A stretch of DNA of 64,000 nt from Phormidesmis sp. (GTDB lineage: Bacteria > Cyanobacteriota > Cyanobacteriia > Leptolyngbyales > Leptolyngbyaceae), in assembly GCA_965248535.1 (NCBI GenBank), contig CBDFJR010000002.1:1920001-1984000 (forward strand), read 5' to 3'. Shown piece by piece: positions 250-57,863 of the stretch. The position numbers and the translations under genes are program-made. The notes below the pieces were generated by a model that saw only the letters and a program-made list of their open reading frames with translations, did no database searches and was not told where the DNA came from. Each line of letters starts with the position of its first letter. Position 1 is the stretch's first letter.

Positions 250-426
250 TATGATTGAATGATCTGCCTAAATCAGCGTGCTGCTGCCCATAATTTTGCT
301 TATAATCGTCGCAACTTGATTATTTAATTCGCCATTTTAGGTCAAAAACTATAGAAATCTAGAAGCCCTATCCTTGACAAGTTAACGGCTTTAAAATAAG
401 AAGTAACTGCAACAGAGCTAAATTTT

Positions 427-723
427 ATGAGTATTGTCTGGTCACGGATGTTCAGAACCGTTTATCGGAAGGAACCAATCACCGGATTTGTGCTGATTGC
501 AGGGGCCGTCGATGCGGCGATCGGGGGCATTGATGGCAGCACGTCACTGGTGATATTTGGTCTGAGTGCGGTTGGGGTGGCGATCGCGCTCAGACTGTGG
601 CAATCTCAAAAACGCTCTCCTGACATGCCAGAACGCCGAGCTATCCACGCGCTGCCGCCCGCGTCTTCTCGTCCCTCTCTACCGATGCTCTCGATGTCCA
701 AGAAAAGCCCACCTCAGAGCTAG
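427..723 (+). CDS. Small membrane protein of unknown function
   Basis: 98-aa ORF with two hydrophobic helices and a Pro/Ser tail. Confidence 0.75.
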   Translation: MSIVWSRMFRTVYRKEPITGFVLIAGAVDAAIGGIDGSTSLVIFGLSAVGVAIALRLWQSQKRSPDMPERRAIHALPPASSRPSLPMLSMSKKSPPQS

Positions 724-774
724 CGTTTTAGGGAATTTTTGTCAGGGCATTGAGGCCCCATCGTCTATGTACCT

Positions 775-1860
775 CTAAGTCCAATATAAAATCTGGGCTT
801 GAGGAAAGCGATCGTGAATTTGCCCTTCAAAAAACTGGCGCATCGTCTTCATGGTCGTCGAGTCATAAACGTATTTAACGCCGCCGAACTTATTTCGCTT
901 CATGACGCGCTTCGACTCATCCATCTCTAGCTTGCTGTTGGGATACCAACTCTGCAACACCTCTTTAGAACCAGGCGTAAAGCGGTGGGAGATTAGCTCA
1001 AAAGTCAAGTCGCAGTCAAAATCTAAAGCAGCCCCAATCGACTCAAATAAGCGATCGTAGTGCAATTCCCAATCTTCGATCGGCATGATTGGCGCAATCA
1101 CCAACCCAATCGGATAGCCGCCTCCCCCTTGCTGACGCGGCAAGGCCAGGTTTCTCAACGCTTGAAGTCGATTGGCGACCGATGCTGTGCCGCCTTCGAG
1201 ACGATCGCTAATCGGGGCAGCATTGACGCTAAATCGGCAGCGCGTGTGACCATTGTGCGGCAGATCGAGCAGGTCATCGACCCCATCAAATTTCGACACC
1301 CAGCGCAGATAGCCGTTGTCCCGCGTCCCAAAATAGCGAATGCACTCGGCTAAACTGCCCGTCAAATGCTCAATGCCGAGCGGATCGGTGTAGCAACTCA
1401 CCTCAAAAGAAGTTGGCTTGTCTGATCGCTCATAGCCACCAAGATTTTGCAGTGTTTGAGGCAGATTGGCAAAGGCTCTAATCACAGGCGGCCCCGACAG
1501 ACTCCCGGCTAGATAGCAATATTGACAATGAGCCGGGCAGCCCTCAGCTAAGTGAAACTGCCAATCAGCAGACGGCGGAATCGGACTCAGTTTGAGGCTG
1601 CTGGGTGGCGCATTCACCACGGCTAGGGTGCGTTTGGAGATAGCGTAGGTCTCGCGATCGGTCTCGCCGCGCAGACCTGTCAGGCGATTTTTGGGCAGCG
1701 TCTCAACGGGCAAATTGAGCGCTGTGACTCGCGAAAGAATTTCTTGACCCCACGGCTCATCTAGCGCCGCCGGAGTGAAGAGAACCTGTTCAGGCATCCA
1801 CAAACGAGTTGGATGCGTGACTTTGGGGATAGAAATCTGAGGCCCGATCGAGTGAACCAA
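775..1860 (-). CDS. splB: Spore photoproduct lyase family radical SAM protein
   Basis: CxxxCxxC (GCPAHCQYCYL), FEVSCYTDPLGIEHLT, HNGHTRCRFSVN, TFELISHRFT and C-terminal ILYWT align by eye with Bacillus SplB. Confidence 0.88.
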   Translation of the reverse strand: MVHSIGPQISIPKVTHPTRLWMPEQVLFTPAALDEPWGQEILSRVTALNLPVETLPKNRLTGLRGETDRETYAISKRTLAVVNAPPSSLKLSPIPPSADWQFHLAEGCPAHCQYCYLAGSLSGPPVIRAFANLPQTLQNLGGYERSDKPTSFEVSCYTDPLGIEHLTGSLAECIRYFGTRDNGYLRWVSKFDGVDDLLDLPHNGHTRCRFSVNAAPISDRLEGGTASVANRLQALRNLALPRQQGGGGYPIGLVIAPIMPIEDWELHYDRLFESIGAALDFDCDLTFELISHRFTPGSKEVLQSWYPNSKLEMDESKRVMKRNKFGGVKYVYDSTTMKTMRQFFEGQIHDRFPQAQILYWT

Positions 1861-43688: not shown

Positions 43689-45374
43689 ATGTTGCAAACC
43701 CTCTCACCCAAACCTCTGCGCTGGCAACAGCAAACCAAGTCTCCACTGGCGCGTCAAGTGGATGTTTCTCTGTCGGCTGCTCAGTTTGCTTTTTATCTGT
43801 GGTGGGACAGTCACATTGCAAACCGTTCTCCAGCCCGCCGCGATCGCCGCGCTCAATGGCTGGTTAGCACTTTACTCAATTTAGGCCCGACGTTTATCAA
43901 GATTGGGCAAGCGCTCTCGACTCGCGCAGATTTGCTGCCGATCGAATATGTCAAGGCGCTCTCACAGCTTCAAGATCGCGTCCCAGAATTTGGCGCTGAC
44001 CAAGCGATCGCCATTATTGAATCAGAACTGAATGGCCCCCTGCACACGCTTTATTGTGAGTTTGATCGGGTGCCTCTAGCTGCCGCGAGTTTAGGACAGG
44101 TTCATCGCGCCAGACTGCACACGGGCGAAGAAGTCGTGGTCAAAGTGCAGCGTCCTGGACTCGACCAATTATTTGACTTAGATCTCAAAGTTTTAGATCG
44201 CGTCGTTCGGTTGAGCACTCGATATTCGGCGATCGCCCGACAATACGATCTCGGTGCGATTTATCAAGAGTTTGCCGAAATTCTCTATAAAGAGGTCGAT
44301 TATGTTCAAGAAGCGATGAACGCCGATCGCTTTCGCCATAATTTCGTCGATCACCCTCGCATTGTGGTGCCCAAGATTTATCCGCGCTACACCACAAAGC
44401 GCGTGTTGACCATGGAGTATGTGCCCGGCATCAAAGTCAACGATCGTCGCAGCCTAGAAGCGATCGGCATCGATCCCAAAGATATCAATCATTTAGGCAT
44501 TTGTGCTTATCTGAAGCAGTTGCTGCAAGACGGCTTCTTTCAAGCTGATCCCCATCCCGGCAATATGGCAGTGACGATCGACGGACGGCTGATCTTCTAT
44601 GACTTTGGCATGATGGCAGAAGTGATGCCGATCAACCGCGATCAGATGGTCAAGACCTTCTTCGCCGTTTTAAAAAAAGACACCGACGAAGTGATTCACA
44701 CGCTGACTGATATGGGCTTAATTGAGCCAATGTCAGACATGACCCCTGTGCGGCGCGTCTTAGGGTTTTTAATCGATCGCTTCACCGATAAGCCCGTCGA
44801 ACTGCAAGCCTTTAAGAATTTGCGAAACGAGCTATACACCCTGTTTGAAAAGCAGCCCTTTCGACTGCCTGCCAAGATGACGTTTATCATCAAGGCGTTG
44901 ACAACGCTAGACGGGGTGGCTCGCGATTTAGATCCGCAATATAGCCTGCTGATTGCTGCAAAACCCTTTGTCAAGAGTCTGGTGACCACGGCCCCCAAAA
45001 ATCACGGCAGTGGGTTGGGTGAGTTGGTGCGCCAAGCTCAAAGTTTTCTGACCTATCAGATTCGCAAACCCAACTCGGCAGACCTGACGATTCAGCGACT
45101 CGAAGCGCGACTCGAACAAGGCGAATTTCAAATTCGAGTCCAATCAGAGAGCGATCGCCACCTCAAAACCCTACACTTGGCGGTGAAGTCCCTAATTTAC
45201 GCCTGCTTAACGGGGTTTTCGGGCTTGTCAGGAGTGGTGCTGCTCGTGGGGGCTTATCAAGGAGGTGCGATCGCGAGTTTTGTCGTCGCGGGCGTGTTTG
45301 GCGTTTTTCTAATCAAATCGCTGGTGCGACTCGCCTTGAGAGAACGGCTCGAATCACTGCGGAATCCCTCTTGA
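43689..45374 (+). CDS. ABC1/AarF/UbiB atypical kinase
   Basis: LGPTFIKIGQ, AAASLGQVH, VKVQRP, ADPHPGN, YDFGM. Confidence 0.93.
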   Translation: MLQTLSPKPLRWQQQTKSPLARQVDVSLSAAQFAFYLWWDSHIANRSPARRDRRAQWLVSTLLNLGPTFIKIGQALSTRADLLPIEYVKALSQLQDRVPEFGADQAIAIIESELNGPLHTLYCEFDRVPLAAASLGQVHRARLHTGEEVVVKVQRPGLDQLFDLDLKVLDRVVRLSTRYSAIARQYDLGAIYQEFAEILYKEVDYVQEAMNADRFRHNFVDHPRIVVPKIYPRYTTKRVLTMEYVPGIKVNDRRSLEAIGIDPKDINHLGICAYLKQLLQDGFFQADPHPGNMAVTIDGRLIFYDFGMMAEVMPINRDQMVKTFFAVLKKDTDEVIHTLTDMGLIEPMSDMTPVRRVLGFLIDRFTDKPVELQAFKNLRNELYTLFEKQPFRLPAKMTFIIKALTTLDGVARDLDPQYSLLIAAKPFVKSLVTTAPKNHGSGLGELVRQAQSFLTYQIRKPNSADLTIQRLEARLEQGEFQIRVQSESDRHLKTLHLAVKSLIYACLTGFSGLSGVVLLVGAYQGGAIASFVVAGVFGVFLIKSLVRLALRERLESLRNPS

Positions 45375-45509
45375 CACTCCCACGGCTCCGCAAAGCTAAA
45401 GCCGTGGGATTCTTGATTCAATGAAACCACTTAACCTAGAGTCCTTGCGTCATCTAGACCAGAGGTGGGATTCTCCCCAAGCGTTAATTCGGGTATGCCC
45501 TACCCTATT
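45355..45509 (-). ncRNA. TnpB omega-RNA (reRNA) scaffold plus flanking guide, overlapping the last ~19 codons of a deleted tnpB
   Basis: TnpB-type tail NRVGHTRINAWGESHLWSR* (45450-45509), then ..TGAATCAAGAATCCCACGGC..GTGTCAA; the guide would begin GAGGGATTCCGCAG; exact RNA ends inferred. Confidence 0.68.
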
Positions 45510-45888
45510 TGCGCTTCTTACTCAGTTGCCTGCGACGGGAAACTCGTCTTCAGCACTGAGCGCCGCAAGTCCTGTTTAAGTTTGAAGCAGATAGGCCTCA
45601 AAATGCTGTTTGTCTAGCTCCTCTGAATCTTTTACCTACTGCGAGGGGGAGTCTAGAAAAATGCAGTAGAACCGCATAGATTCAATTTTCAAGGTTCAGC
45701 GTGTCTCTCGACAGCAAGGTTTTTTAAGTGGTTGATTACCTTTCCACAAGTACAAAATTATCACAAATCGGAGTGCGATTTCATGAAGATTGCTGGACTC
45801 TGCCTGCTGCCGCAGGCGCGAGAACCCTCGCTACATCCCACGGCTGAAGCACGATGGGTTTTGCGGGTTCTCAGGCTCTCCCGTTTCT
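45371..45888 (-). mobile_element. Non-autonomous IS200/IS605 derivative (PATE/MITE-like), 518 bp, with no transposase or tnpB ORF
   Basis: Minus strand: TTAT target at 45889-45892, left-end hairpin (45820-45872), right-end hairpin TCCCACGGCT/AGCCGTGGGA ending in GTGTCAA; excision restores ccc tca taa. Confidence 0.85.
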
Positions 45889-46017
45889 ATAAAATCGCCG
45901 TGCTGATTAATTTGTCCCCCACAAAATCCGTCTAGGGTGTAGAAAGGATCAGGGATGTCGGTTGCCTCCCATCCATCCCAGTAGACTGTCCTTTCTAATC
46001 TCTCTGCACACGGCGCT

Positions 46018-47796
46018 ATGGTTTCTACGGTTTTCTCAAAAGATTTTCAGCGTTATTGGCTGTTGGTTTTGCTGGCGATCGTGACTGCGATCGCTCTCAG
46101 TGCCTGCAACCCTCAACTCTATCGAACGTCGGCCGCGCAAGTGCCCCAACTGGTTGACTCAACTCTCAGCGACCCTAAAAGCTTTAACTATGCGCTGATT
46201 AACGAAGACCCCAGCATCGCCACCCTGATGTATGAGGGGTTGATTACCGAAAATGGCTTAACCGGGGCCGTTGAGCCAGCCCTAGCCGAATCGTGGACGA
46301 TCTCCGAGGACAAAAAACGCATTCAGTTCACCCTGCGTCCGGGGTTGCAGTGGTCGGATGGAGAACCGCTCACCGTCGAGGATGTGCTGTTTACCTTCCA
46401 AGATATTTTTCTCAACCCAGCCATTCCAACCGACATTCAAGACGTGTTGCGGATTGGCAAAAGTCGCGTCTTTCCCACGGTGCGAAAAGTGGACGATCGC
46501 CGCATTGAGTTCACCACGCCAGAACCGTTTGCCCCGTTTTTAAGAGCCTTAGGGTTGGCAATTTTGCCTAAACACGTTTTGCAAGAGGTCGTCAAAACCA
46601 AAGGTCGCGACGGCAACCCTCTTTTTCTCTCGACTTGGGGCACCGGAACTGATCCCAAAAAGATCATTTGCAACGGCCCTTATTTGCTCGACGGCTACGC
46701 AACCAGTCAGCGGGTCATCTTTCGCCGCAACCCTTACTATTGGCGTAAAGATGCTCAAGGGAAGTCTCAACCCTATATTGAGCGCATTGTTTGGAGTGTT
46801 GTAGAAAATCAAAACACGAGTTTGCTGCAATTCCGATCGGGCGGACAAGATCTCTCAGAGCCAATTCGACCCGAAGATTTCACGCTCTTAAAGCAAGAAG
46901 AAAAGCGCGGCAAATTTACGCTAAAAATGGGCGGCCCGCGACCGATTACGACGTTTATGGCCTTTAACCTCAACCAGGGCCGCCGCAAAGGAAAACCCCT
47001 CGTTGACCCCATTAAAGCGAAGTGGTTTAACAACGTCAAATTTAGACAAGCTGTGGCCTACGCCATCGATCGCGACAAGATGAACAACAATATCTATCGC
47101 GGGCTAGGGGCTTTGGTCGAGTCGATCATCATGGAGCAAAGTCCTTATTATGTGCCGCCTCAGCCGGATAAAATTTATCGATTTGACCCCAAAAAATCTA
47201 AGCAACTGCTGACCGAAGCGGGCTTTAAATATGACGCAAACGGTCAGCTATCAGATGCAGGTGGGCATCGAGTCCGCTTTAACTTGATGACCAATGCGGG
47301 CAACACGATTAGAGAAGCCTCGATCGCGCAGATCAAACAAGACTTGGGCAAAATCGGGATGCAGGTTGATTTGAATCCGATCAATTTCAACACGATGATC
47401 GACAAGCTTGACAACACGCTAGATTGGGATGCTTATTTGATGGCAATGGGCAACTCGCGAGAGCCAAATTCGGGGTCTAATATTTGGTCGCCGGATGGGT
47501 CATCCCATAACTTTAATCAGCCATCGCTGCCCGGCAAGCCGATCGAAAATCGCGTCGTGGCTGAGTGGGAGGCAGAAATCGGTCGTCTATATATTGAGGG
47601 CGCGCAGGAGCTTGACGAAACCAAACGCAAAGCGATCTATGGCAAAATTCAGCAAATTGCCCATGAGAATTTGCCCTGGATCACCTTGATGAATGCACGA
47701 GTCATGGCGGCAGTGCGCGATCGGGTGCAAGGCATAAACTATCCTGAGTTGGGCAGCGCCTTGTGGAACATTCAAGACTTAAAAGTTGTGGATTGA
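46018..47796 (+). CDS. ABC transporter substrate-binding lipoprotein, family 5 (peptide/nickel)
   Basis: Lipobox LSAC, SDPKSFN, PALAESW, WSDGEPLTVEDV. Confidence 0.92.
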   Translation: MVSTVFSKDFQRYWLLVLLAIVTAIALSACNPQLYRTSAAQVPQLVDSTLSDPKSFNYALINEDPSIATLMYEGLITENGLTGAVEPALAESWTISEDKKRIQFTLRPGLQWSDGEPLTVEDVLFTFQDIFLNPAIPTDIQDVLRIGKSRVFPTVRKVDDRRIEFTTPEPFAPFLRALGLAILPKHVLQEVVKTKGRDGNPLFLSTWGTGTDPKKIICNGPYLLDGYATSQRVIFRRNPYYWRKDAQGKSQPYIERIVWSVVENQNTSLLQFRSGGQDLSEPIRPEDFTLLKQEEKRGKFTLKMGGPRPITTFMAFNLNQGRRKGKPLVDPIKAKWFNNVKFRQAVAYAIDRDKMNNNIYRGLGALVESIIMEQSPYYVPPQPDKIYRFDPKKSKQLLTEAGFKYDANGQLSDAGGHRVRFNLMTNAGNTIREASIAQIKQDLGKIGMQVDLNPINFNTMIDKLDNTLDWDAYLMAMGNSREPNSGSNIWSPDGSSHNFNQPSLPGKPIENRVVAEWEAEIGRLYIEGAQELDETKRKAIYGKIQQIAHENLPWITLMNARVMAAVRDRVQGINYPELGSALWNIQDLKVVD

Positions 47797-57750: not shown

Positions 57751-57760
57751 GAAGGAAAAA

Positions 57761-57822
57761 CGTTCATCCCCTCTAAAAACACAGACGGGGACGGAAGTAA
57801 GGACATTCCTGAAGGAACGCGC
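57761..57822 (+). ncRNA. Glutamine riboswitch (glnA motif, class I)
   Basis: CGTTCATCCCC...GGGGACGGAAGTAAGGACATTCCTGAAGGAACGCGC matches the glnA-motif pattern, upstream of a DUF4278 gene. Confidence 0.85.
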
Positions 57823-57863
57823 TTCTCTTCATCCCATAAAGCAACTTTTTGGAGAAGCGACTC

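Follow-up and report, generated by a model that had tools for sequence, protein, structure and literature searches.

Is a short insertion that has the ends of an IS200/IS605 transposon and no protein gene a remnant of that transposon, or is it an element built around an RNA gene? This question is raised by a locus in a 64,000-nucleotide stretch of the genome of a Phormidesmis sp. (GenBank assembly GCA_965248535.1, contig CBDFJR010000002.1, positions 1,920,001 to 1,984,000 of the forward strand; hereafter the window). A preliminary description, made from the letters of the window alone, had recognized there a protein-free derivative of IS605 that appeared to express a long structured guide RNA. 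We followed it up in the whole genome (G000; 5.03 Mb in five contigs, of which C2 and C5 are cited below), in related genomes, and in public sequence collections. We conclude that window positions 45371-45888, on the minus strand, are a protein-free, non-autonomous IS200/IS605 element of the type known as palindrome-associated transposable elements (PATEs). With a probability of roughly 0.6, it is built around an RNA gene whose product works with TnpB in trans.

The element is mobile and carries no protein gene

The element is 518 bases long. On the minus strand its left boundary reads TTTTAT followed by AGAAACGG (window 45894-45881), with 45888 as the first element base. The right end consists of CCCACGGCT, a loop, and AGCCGTGGGAGTGTCAA; the terminal bases are GGGAGTGTCAA, the last of them at 45371. 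A single sense-strand open reading frame (ORF) of at least 30 amino acids touches the element, a 57-amino-acid frame that leaves via the right end, and a genome scan for the Y1 transposase family gave no match at this position. Terminal inverted repeats are absent, and both ends bear subterminal hairpins related to those of a full-length element, as is the case in PATEs.

Three full copies are present in the genome: copy A in the window, copy B at C2:1792739-1793265, and copy C at C5:1478690-1479213. Two variants, D and E, are described below. The identities of A, B, and C are 100, 98.3, and 96.8% over 525 to 527 nt; in all three the homology begins with TTAT followed by AGAAACGG and stops at GTGTCAA, and the flanks are unrelated. 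For copy A, seven of seven congeners have an empty orthologous site, with 1 to 22 nt between its two flanks. Insertion took place 3' of the short TTAT motif, and the empty sites show that it made no target duplication. In one genome (G063), window positions 45370 and 45890 are one base apart, which places the element at 45371-45888/9, and one contig of sequencing run X22 represents the copy A locus without the element. Given the 97 to 100% identity of the copies, their intact ends, and the lack of an insertion at site A in all seven congeners, we regard the element as recently mobile and not as a fixed locus.

A full-length transposon with matching ends resides in the same genome. The genome contains 27 places of the TnpB zinc-ribbon family, which we extracted, and 11 matches to the Y1 transposase family. 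One autonomous IS605 (C2:2302811-2304585; tnpA in minus and tnpB in plus orientation) has a left end (LE) 96% identical to that of copy A over 97 nt, a similar right-end hairpin, and the same last 11 bases, GGGAGTGTCAA. Its TnpA is full length (Y1_Tnp, E 2.4e-36), as is its TnpB (OrfB_IS605, E 2e-25; TNB domain, E 2.5e-21). By eye, this TnpB retains the motifs GLDVG, YEDL, and DRDHNAA, which we take to be the RuvC residues. Judging from the matching ends, the resident TnpA would be a candidate for moving the element in trans.

The preliminary description was accurate about the layout of the element and its nature as a mobile, protein-free IS200/IS605 derivative. The TTAT target, the left-end hairpin, the extended -10 GATAAT at 45757-45762, the GNRA hairpin, and the right-end hairpin ending in TCAA are all present where it had placed them.

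The 5' domain has no counterpart in tnpB

Two parts make up the RNA module, a 5' domain of about 190 nt and a 3' part that runs to the right end. We built a covariance model of the 5' domain from 34 sequences (model R2). It scores 201 bits at window 45559-45748, and its only matches in the genome at E<=1 are the five module copies. A search of the whole genome with nhmmer (E<=0.01) likewise found the 5' domain nowhere outside these five. With its filters off, R2 was also run on four loci, namely the autonomous IS605, a second tnpB element, and two further gene-less elements, where it reached at best 10 bits (E 0.28). By tblastn, nhmmer, and the covariance model together, the 5' domain had no counterpart in the 27 resident tnpB genes. 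The lowest tblastn E value (0.004; 66 amino acids, 26% identity) belongs to an opposite-strand match that spans the left end and the promoter; we judged it to be noise among many short chance matches (E<=10). The TGTC-GAGA-GACA hairpin and CTGAACCTTGA are both present in the interior of the element and are almost invariant in relatives.

No tnpB-bearing parent element was found beside 14 family-level homologues, nor beside the three partial matches with enough context (L043, L049, and L051); seven of 12 stretches drawn on for this comparison break off at contig ends and are uninformative. Rfam 15 contains IS605-orfB motifs; at gathering thresholds it gave nothing on the element, and at E<=10 it returned just sR48 (E 2.4) and mir-933 (E 8), both of which are noise. 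The preliminary description had held that this is not a plain internal deletion and had named an interior of decayed tnpA/tnpB sequence as the outcome that would speak against it. Within this genome the interior gave no such alignment: nhmmer, R2, and tblastn find no relation of the 5' part to tnpB elements or TnpB proteins. With these methods, no similarity of the roughly 190-nt interior to tnpA or tnpB is apparent, and this interior is conserved, with covariation, in many cyanobacterial genera.

The 3' part is an omegaRNA-type scaffold

The last 133 positions of the module, used as an nhmmer profile, found the five module copies and the 3' ends of five tnpB genes, all of one subfamily (E 1e-6 to 5e-12). 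A covariance model of the 3' part built from 41 sequences (model R1) scores 135 to 140 bits on the five module copies. It also gives full-length matches at five tnpB 3' ends: C2:2304438-2304574 (95.9 bits), C5:1505230-1505362 (75.3 bits), C5:921274-921406 (71.6 bits), C2:2252169-2252302 (65.8 bits), and C5:1039271-1039401 (54.5 bits). Six further, weaker R1 matches are located at tnpB 3' ends as well. Since R1 matches resident tnpB 3' ends in both sequence and structure, the last ~140 nt of the element are an omegaRNA-type scaffold, as the preliminary description had supposed for the right end. It had further read the last ~19 codons of tnpB into this region. This is right as homology, given the R1 matches at tnpB 3' ends, and wrong as an open frame: the 27 resident TnpB proteins gave one colinear tblastn match, of residues 437-452 (16 amino acids), in the 3' part (E 0.012). 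An omegaRNA would be expected to overlap a tnpB gene, and no tnpB is present at the element. The preliminary description had proposed to look for a resident tnpB with the same right end: the autonomous IS605 shares the last 11 bases, and none of the resident tnpB genes has a scaffold closely similar to that of the module.

The RNA is conserved in structure and has a promoter-like site of its own

The structured region spans about 375 nt, or about 325 nt without a nested 50-nt repeat, and the promoter-like site lies just upstream of it. RNAalifold, run on the minus strand of 50 diverse modules, predicted 67 pairs, 37 of which have changes on both sides. Paired cells amounted to 97.8%, compared with 88.4% in shuffles, and none of 500 shuffles reached any of five measures. 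The covariation score was 0.315, against 0.140 for shuffled alignments and at most 0.069 when the partners were slid. Covariation among copies, which had been proposed as a check, is therefore present above the level of the shuffles. It extends over both parts of the module. In the 5' domain, helices 2-5, 7, and 8 contain 13 pairs with changes on both sides, and stem P1 occurs as GTGG/CCAC, ACAGG/CCTGT, GCAGG/CCTGC, GCGG/CCGC, and GAGG/CCTC. The right-end helix (helix 14) has compensatory changes in seven of nine pairs among these 50 relatives. The 290 G.U cells, compared with 21 A.C cells, favor the minus strand as the transcribed one, with the caveat that the structure itself had been predicted on this strand.

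A consensus scan of window 45100-46050 returned two promoter-like sites, compared with 0.5 +/- 0.6 in shuffles. The -10 register conserved among homologues, TGnTAnnnT, is located 2 nt downstream of the hexamer GATAAT. In the 66 complete modules collected below, a TAnnnT box, often with TGn before it, precedes the first RNA stem by 6 to 8 nt, and it does so with at least four unrelated types of left end. Because this -10 box is kept under different left ends, the promoter belongs to the RNA and not to the transposon end, which agrees with the transcription unit of its own that the preliminary description had postulated. From the position of the box, transcription would start near the first stem.

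We examined 4 of 24 listed sequencing runs for the RNA; the small shares (0.05-0.07) listed for the other 20 were left out of account. Contigs of a microbial-mat RNA study (X3) and of a freshwater metatranscriptome (X1) cover window 45396-45747 with summed word depths of up to 2,730 and 636, respectively; they skip the 50-nt insert and have zero depth at 45748-45791. In run X22, whose library kind is not on record, coverage runs on through the left end, and run X2, probably DNA, gave one contig. Close relatives of the module thus occur in the RNA libraries of two studies.

The module is widespread in cyanobacteria

In a family survey of 90 genomes from 27 genera, the 5' domain was present in 15 genomes of 8 genera. 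We then scanned one genome per species, covering 185,579 species, for the 5' domain motif; more than 116 stretches matched, and 80 loci were fetched. They include loci of Nostoc, Anabaena, Dolichospermum, Scytonema hofmanni UTEX 2349, Arthrospira platensis, Microcoleus, Phormidesmis, Chamaesiphon, Pseudanabaena, and Pleurocapsa. The 3' part follows the 5' domain directly in 78 of the 80, and the remaining two end at contig ends. A TnpB-like tblastn match (E<=1e-5) within 2 kb was found at one of the 80 loci, on the opposite strand and 1.6 kb away. All of the 66 complete modules end in TGTCAA, and 64 of them end in GAGTGTCAA. Copies with the same ends and different flanks, another check that had been suggested, therefore number three in this genome, and the 3' flanks of the 66 complete relatives differ in almost all cases.

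Two of the 80 loci have non-cyanobacterial titles, a Chloroflexaceae bin (L134, JAAUTE010000108.1) and a Rhizobium bin (L140, CALRKB020000089.1). Both carry complete modules and may be misbinned cyanobacterial contigs. In the IMG/VR viral collection, two contigs (L189 and L190) contain the motif of the 5' domain as well. The Nezha miniature elements (MITEs) of Anabaena and Nostoc were considered and ruled out, as they are inverted-repeat, direct-repeat elements of 130 to 170 bp. A full-text literature search, whose scope did not extend to subscription journals and supplementary files, found no published description of this cyanobacterial RNA family.

Variants of the element within the genome

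Copy D is without the LE and has the terminus TCAT instead of TCAA. The right-end hairpin of copy C has the same stems as those of A, B, and D, but its 12-nt loop reads exactly as the reverse complement of theirs (C5:1479175-1479206, compared with window 45379-45408); this hairpin has undergone an inversion.

Copy E (C5:1702650-1703243; locus L005, ~1288-1874) differs from A in its left end. It lies within the kaiABC clock cluster, where it separates kaiB from kaiC and runs antisense to the kai genes. The kaiB-kaiC gap is enlarged to ~660 bp at this locus, and the guide assigned to copy E would lie just past the stop codon of kaiB, on the other strand. An alternative left part of ~215 nt, preceded by TTTAT or TTTAC, is common to copy E and a copy in genome G059; its LE hairpin and the right-end (RE) hairpin mirror each other. 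The two copies have the element in common and not the locus. The alternative left part carries a small gene on the opposite strand, directed away from the RNA promoter. In G059 this gene is intact (L015:1808-1933, plus strand) and codes for a 42-amino-acid ribbon-helix-helix (CopG-type) protein (RHH_1, E 1.3e-4), and in copy E the same gene (L005 ~1320-1460, minus strand) is frameshifted by a 7-nt deletion.

The 50-nt hairpin mini-repeat nested in copy A is not found in most relatives. Solitary copies occur elsewhere, at C5:460117-460169 and at several sites in genomes G059, G065, and G040. In the G059 module copies it occupies two other positions in the module; the three different positions seen among module copies are all predicted loops. 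Another G059 locus (L040; G059:C93) has a 470-amino-acid frame at 346-1758 (minus strand) directly upstream of a 5'-truncated module, which by eye resembles a group II intron reverse transcriptase/maturase. This is probably an intron insertion into the module.

A second protein-less IS605-type family is present in the genome, with two copies that are 81% alike (C2:933288-933757 and C2:598364-598718). As in the first family, the left end is followed by a -10-like box and then by a long 5' part free of ORFs, and R1 matches the omegaRNA-type right end (59.5 and 46.3 bits). This 5' part is a different one, with no match to R2 nor to any TnpB, and the two copies have different left-end types. One copy, F2b, is dead. 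That one genome harbors two families with unlike 5' domains is a hint that such add-on domains arise repeatedly.

Insertion site and neighboring genes

The element fills most of the gap between an ABC1-kinase gene (43689-45374, plus strand) and a gene for a family-5 solute-binding protein (46018-47796, plus strand). The insertion point is the stop codon of the kinase gene, which read ...CCC TCA TAA before the insertion and reads ...CCC TCT TGA after it. The kinase protein is unchanged, because the new TGA comes from the reverse complement of the TCAA end (window 45372-45374). The right end of copy C (C5:1479210-1479213) likewise overlaps the end of a convergent ORF, and copy B lies 5 nt past the end of the neighboring ORF. 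As the TTAT target is ATAA on the opposite strand, it may direct these elements to gene ends. The features of copy A are collected in Table 1. Elsewhere in the window, a glutamine riboswitch aptamer of the glnA leader type is found at 57759-57823 on the plus strand (Rfam RF01739, 58.7 bits, E 2.2e-10); it is the sole Rfam match of the window at gathering score.

Table 1. Features of the element in window coordinates, in the order in which the minus strand is read
Feature	Position	Strand	Remarks
Target/transposon-adjacent motif TTTAT	45889..45893	-	directly 5' of the left end; overlaps, on the plus strand, the TAA with which the ABC1-kinase gene originally ended
Left end (LE), nested hairpins	45796..45888	-	96% identity over 97 nt to the LE of the IS605 at G000:C2:2302811-2304585
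Promoter-like site TGTGATAAT	45755..45784	-	consensus scan; ATGAAA, 16-nt spacer, extended -10 (TGTGATAATTT); GATAAT at 45762-45757 with TG before it
5' RNA domain, ~190 nt	45559..45748	-	stem P1 (GTGG...CCAC), then GNRA hairpin and long-range helices
Nested 50-nt hairpin mini-repeat (CTCAGT...ACTGAG)	45514..45563	-	within an RNA loop, between the 5' and 3' parts
3' omegaRNA-type scaffold	45371..45516	-	R1, 135.6 bits; ends at the right-end cleavage site TCAA
Right-end subterminal hairpin CCCACGGCT / AGCCGTGGG	45379..45408	-	presumably recognized by TnpA; also forms the last RNA stem
Right-end cleavage site TCAA	45374-45371	-	end of the element
Putative guide GAGGGATTCCGCAGTGATTC, ~16-20 nt after TCAA	45351..45370	-	assigned by position; antisense to the 3' end of the ABC1-kinase gene

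A model for the guide RNA and its partner

A scaffold at the right end suggests a guide in the adjoining flank. We tested seven flanks as guides. Each had one perfect match in the genome, its own site; none of the seven had a perfect target in trans in the genome. The guide of the second-family copy F2b has a match with one mismatch inside a tnpB gene. Module-type R1 matches (>=125 bits) occur in 15 of the 90 family genomes, and lower-scoring relatives of the scaffold are present in 13 of these 15, compared with 23 of the other 75.

We consider it fairly probable that the RNA of the element uses TnpB in trans. According to our model, the TnpA of the resident autonomous IS605 would excise the element and reinsert it as single-stranded DNA. 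The RNA would be transcribed from its own promoter through the right end into the flank, and because of this proposed read-through, the flank would become its 3' tail and guide. TnpB from a full-length element would bind the 3' scaffold and cut the emptied donor site (TTTAT plus the flank, GAGGGATTCCGCAGTG), after which the element would be copied back by recombination. An element of this kind would be a guide-RNA-only parasite of the TnpA/TnpB machinery. The restoration of an element at its emptied site under TnpB guidance is the model set out in the preprint by Meers et al. (bioRxiv 10.1101/2023.03.14.532601). Since the tnpB-linked scaffolds have diverged from that of the module, recognition by a resident TnpB is an assumption of our version of it.

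The role of the extra domain is part of the same model. The 5' domain most likely stabilizes the free-standing RNA or aids its competition for TnpB. A further-reaching proposal is that it is a functional RNA module absent from ordinary omegaRNAs, that it could let a guide-RNA-only element out-compete the resident omegaRNAs as a hyperparasite or recruit another partner, and that we are looking at ancient self-propagating guide-RNA genes across many cyanobacterial genera. This proposal is tentative, and we would sooner bet against it than for it.

Weighing of the alternatives

The RNA might act without TnpB, as an antisense or cis regulator of the abutting gene, as a structured RNA with another protein, or as a ribozyme, with the 3' part kept mainly through its overlap with the right end that TnpA needs. 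We hold this to be unlikely. It would suit a 5' domain that is conserved as well as the 3' part and covaries without a tnpB counterpart, the finding of tnpB-like sequence within 2 kb in only 1 of 80 fetched loci, the genome (G005) that has a module without any other scaffold relative, and copies that run antisense into the 3' ends of convergent genes (ABC1 kinase, and kaiB for copy E). However, the covarying 3' structure reaches ~100 nt upstream of the end hairpin (helices 9-12), and TnpA recognition in IS608 reportedly needs less than this. The same structure occurs at tnpB 3' ends, and there is no common antisense target, because the flanks differ in almost all of the 66 copies. Nor did any Rfam family, ribozymes included, match at E<=10 save the two noise matches. 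The RNA might alternatively be a domesticated guide RNA, no longer mobile, that serves a nuclease-dead TnpB (TldR-like) or another fixed regulator. The promoter, the location of copy E between kaiB and kaiC, and the left-end variant with a small ribbon-helix-helix gene (RHH_1, E 1.3e-4) would all be in keeping with such a role, which we nevertheless consider very improbable. Copies A, B, and C are 97 to 100% identical with intact ends, site A is empty in seven of seven congeners, none of the guides tested has a second perfect target in the genome, and copy E and its G059 look-alike have only the element in common. No tnpB-like gene is found beside 79 of the 80 loci, and nothing points to the dead TnpB or TldR-like partner that the preliminary description had entertained.

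Two further explanations strike us as scarcely credible. An inert, decaying internal-deletion remnant of IS605, with a degraded tnpA/tnpB interior, would account for the homology of the 3' part to the tnpB 3' end and for dead copies such as D and F2b of the second family. It is contradicted by an interior unlike the 27 TnpB proteins, whose sole colinear match covers 16 amino acids in the far 3' part, by a 5' domain for which neither nhmmer nor the covariance model finds a match beyond the five module copies, and by a module that is complete in 78 of 80 fetched loci with covariation far above controls. Equally hard to credit is an IStron-like element, in which a self-splicing intron fused to IS605 ends would remove itself from host transcripts. 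Gene-less elements with IStron ends exist, according to a preprint (bioRxiv 10.1101/2023.11.20.567912), and the succession of a large structured RNA and an omegaRNA 3' end resembles that layout. In Rfam, though, neither group I nor group II introns match the element at E<=10, and it has its own promoter. It would also not be spliced from a host mRNA, because it is antisense to both neighbors and, in copy E, to kaiBC.

The interpretation that we prefer, a PATE-type element built around an RNA gene that probably works with TnpB in trans, has to be set against several observations that weigh on the other side. No resident tnpB has a close copy of the scaffold, the best score being 95.9 bits compared with 135 to 140 for the modules. 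Outside the Phormidesmis genome studied here, the lower-scoring R1 matches are scaffold relatives that may or may not lie at tnpB genes, and related genomes are not independent samples. Genome G005, which is 99% complete, has one module and no other R1 match at E<=1e-8. Helix 6, which connects the 5' domain to the last scaffold bases, is without any change on both sides. Folding of the single sequence gives no strand, because both strands beat the shuffles (sense z -2.87, antisense z -3.80). The RNA contigs are from relatives in mixed communities and give no start, end, or strand; the edge of their coverage coincides with the edge of homology between relatives, and one X3 contig extends 255 nt further upstream. 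Some copies are dead, as copy D is without the LE and ends in TCAT.

Significance

The gene-less IS605 elements known to retain a guide RNA have been regarded as leftovers; in the present case, the element looks as if it existed for the sake of its RNA. Conservation spans Nostoc and Scytonema to Arthrospira, Microcoleus, and Pseudanabaena, and two thirds of the RNA is unrelated to tnpB. Should the RNA load into TnpB, the element would be an example from nature of guide RNAs that propagate selfishly with enzymes borrowed from others. In that event, the 5' domain would be a naturally evolved extension that stabilizes or favors a stand-alone guide, and this would be of practical use for TnpB editors whose guides have to be expressed separately. 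Should it not load into TnpB, the RNA would be an unclassified large structured RNA of cyanobacteria.

Comparison with known systems

In the canonical TnpB omegaRNA or reRNA (the ISDra2 type of Karvelis et al. and Nakagawa et al.), the scaffold is said to abut the right end and the guide to come from the flank. The RNA described here is similar in that its scaffold adjoins the right end, its guide would be the flank after TCAA, and its 3' ~140 nt match tnpB-linked scaffolds. It differs in that it does not overlap a tnpB frame, is not part of a tnpB mRNA, and is much longer. Its dedicated promoter, as judged from the conserved -10 box, also contrasts with the processing of omegaRNA from tnpB mRNA, which is described by Nety et al. 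(PMC10278001).

With the gene-less IStron derivatives of Zedaveinyte et al. (bioRxiv 10.1101/2023.11.20.567912), the element shares the lack of proteins and a large structured RNA before an omegaRNA end; unlike them, it has no intron signature in Rfam, has its own promoter, and is antisense to host genes. The guide RNAs associated with TldR (Wiegand et al., bioRxiv 10.1101/2023.11.30.569447) resemble it as omegaRNA-derived RNAs that form an expression unit of their own. In contrast to them, it has no adjacent tnpB or tldR, its copies are mobile and recent, and its guides are its own flanks.

The closest parallel is found in the PATEs of the IS200/IS605 family that encode omegaRNAs, for example, those of Geobacillus stearothermophilus (Meers et al., bioRxiv 10.1101/2023.03.14.532601). 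They too are protein-less and have LE and RE hairpin ends in common with full-length elements of the same genome; mobilization by TnpA in trans is presumed, and the right-end RNA would need TnpB in trans. Gene-less elements that bear guide RNAs and would use TnpB in trans are thus already known, and the idea of a protein-free guide-RNA element is less new than the preliminary description implied. The novelty lies in the additional, conserved 5' domain, in its promoter, and in its occurrence in many cyanobacterial genera. Unlike in the PATEs described, a domain of ~190 nt that is conserved, covaries, and lacks a tnpB counterpart accounts for two thirds of the RNA, and the promoter moves with the RNA under several left ends. 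The module occurs in many cyanobacterial genera with a tnpB nearby in 1 of 80 loci, and it has a sister family with another 5' domain.

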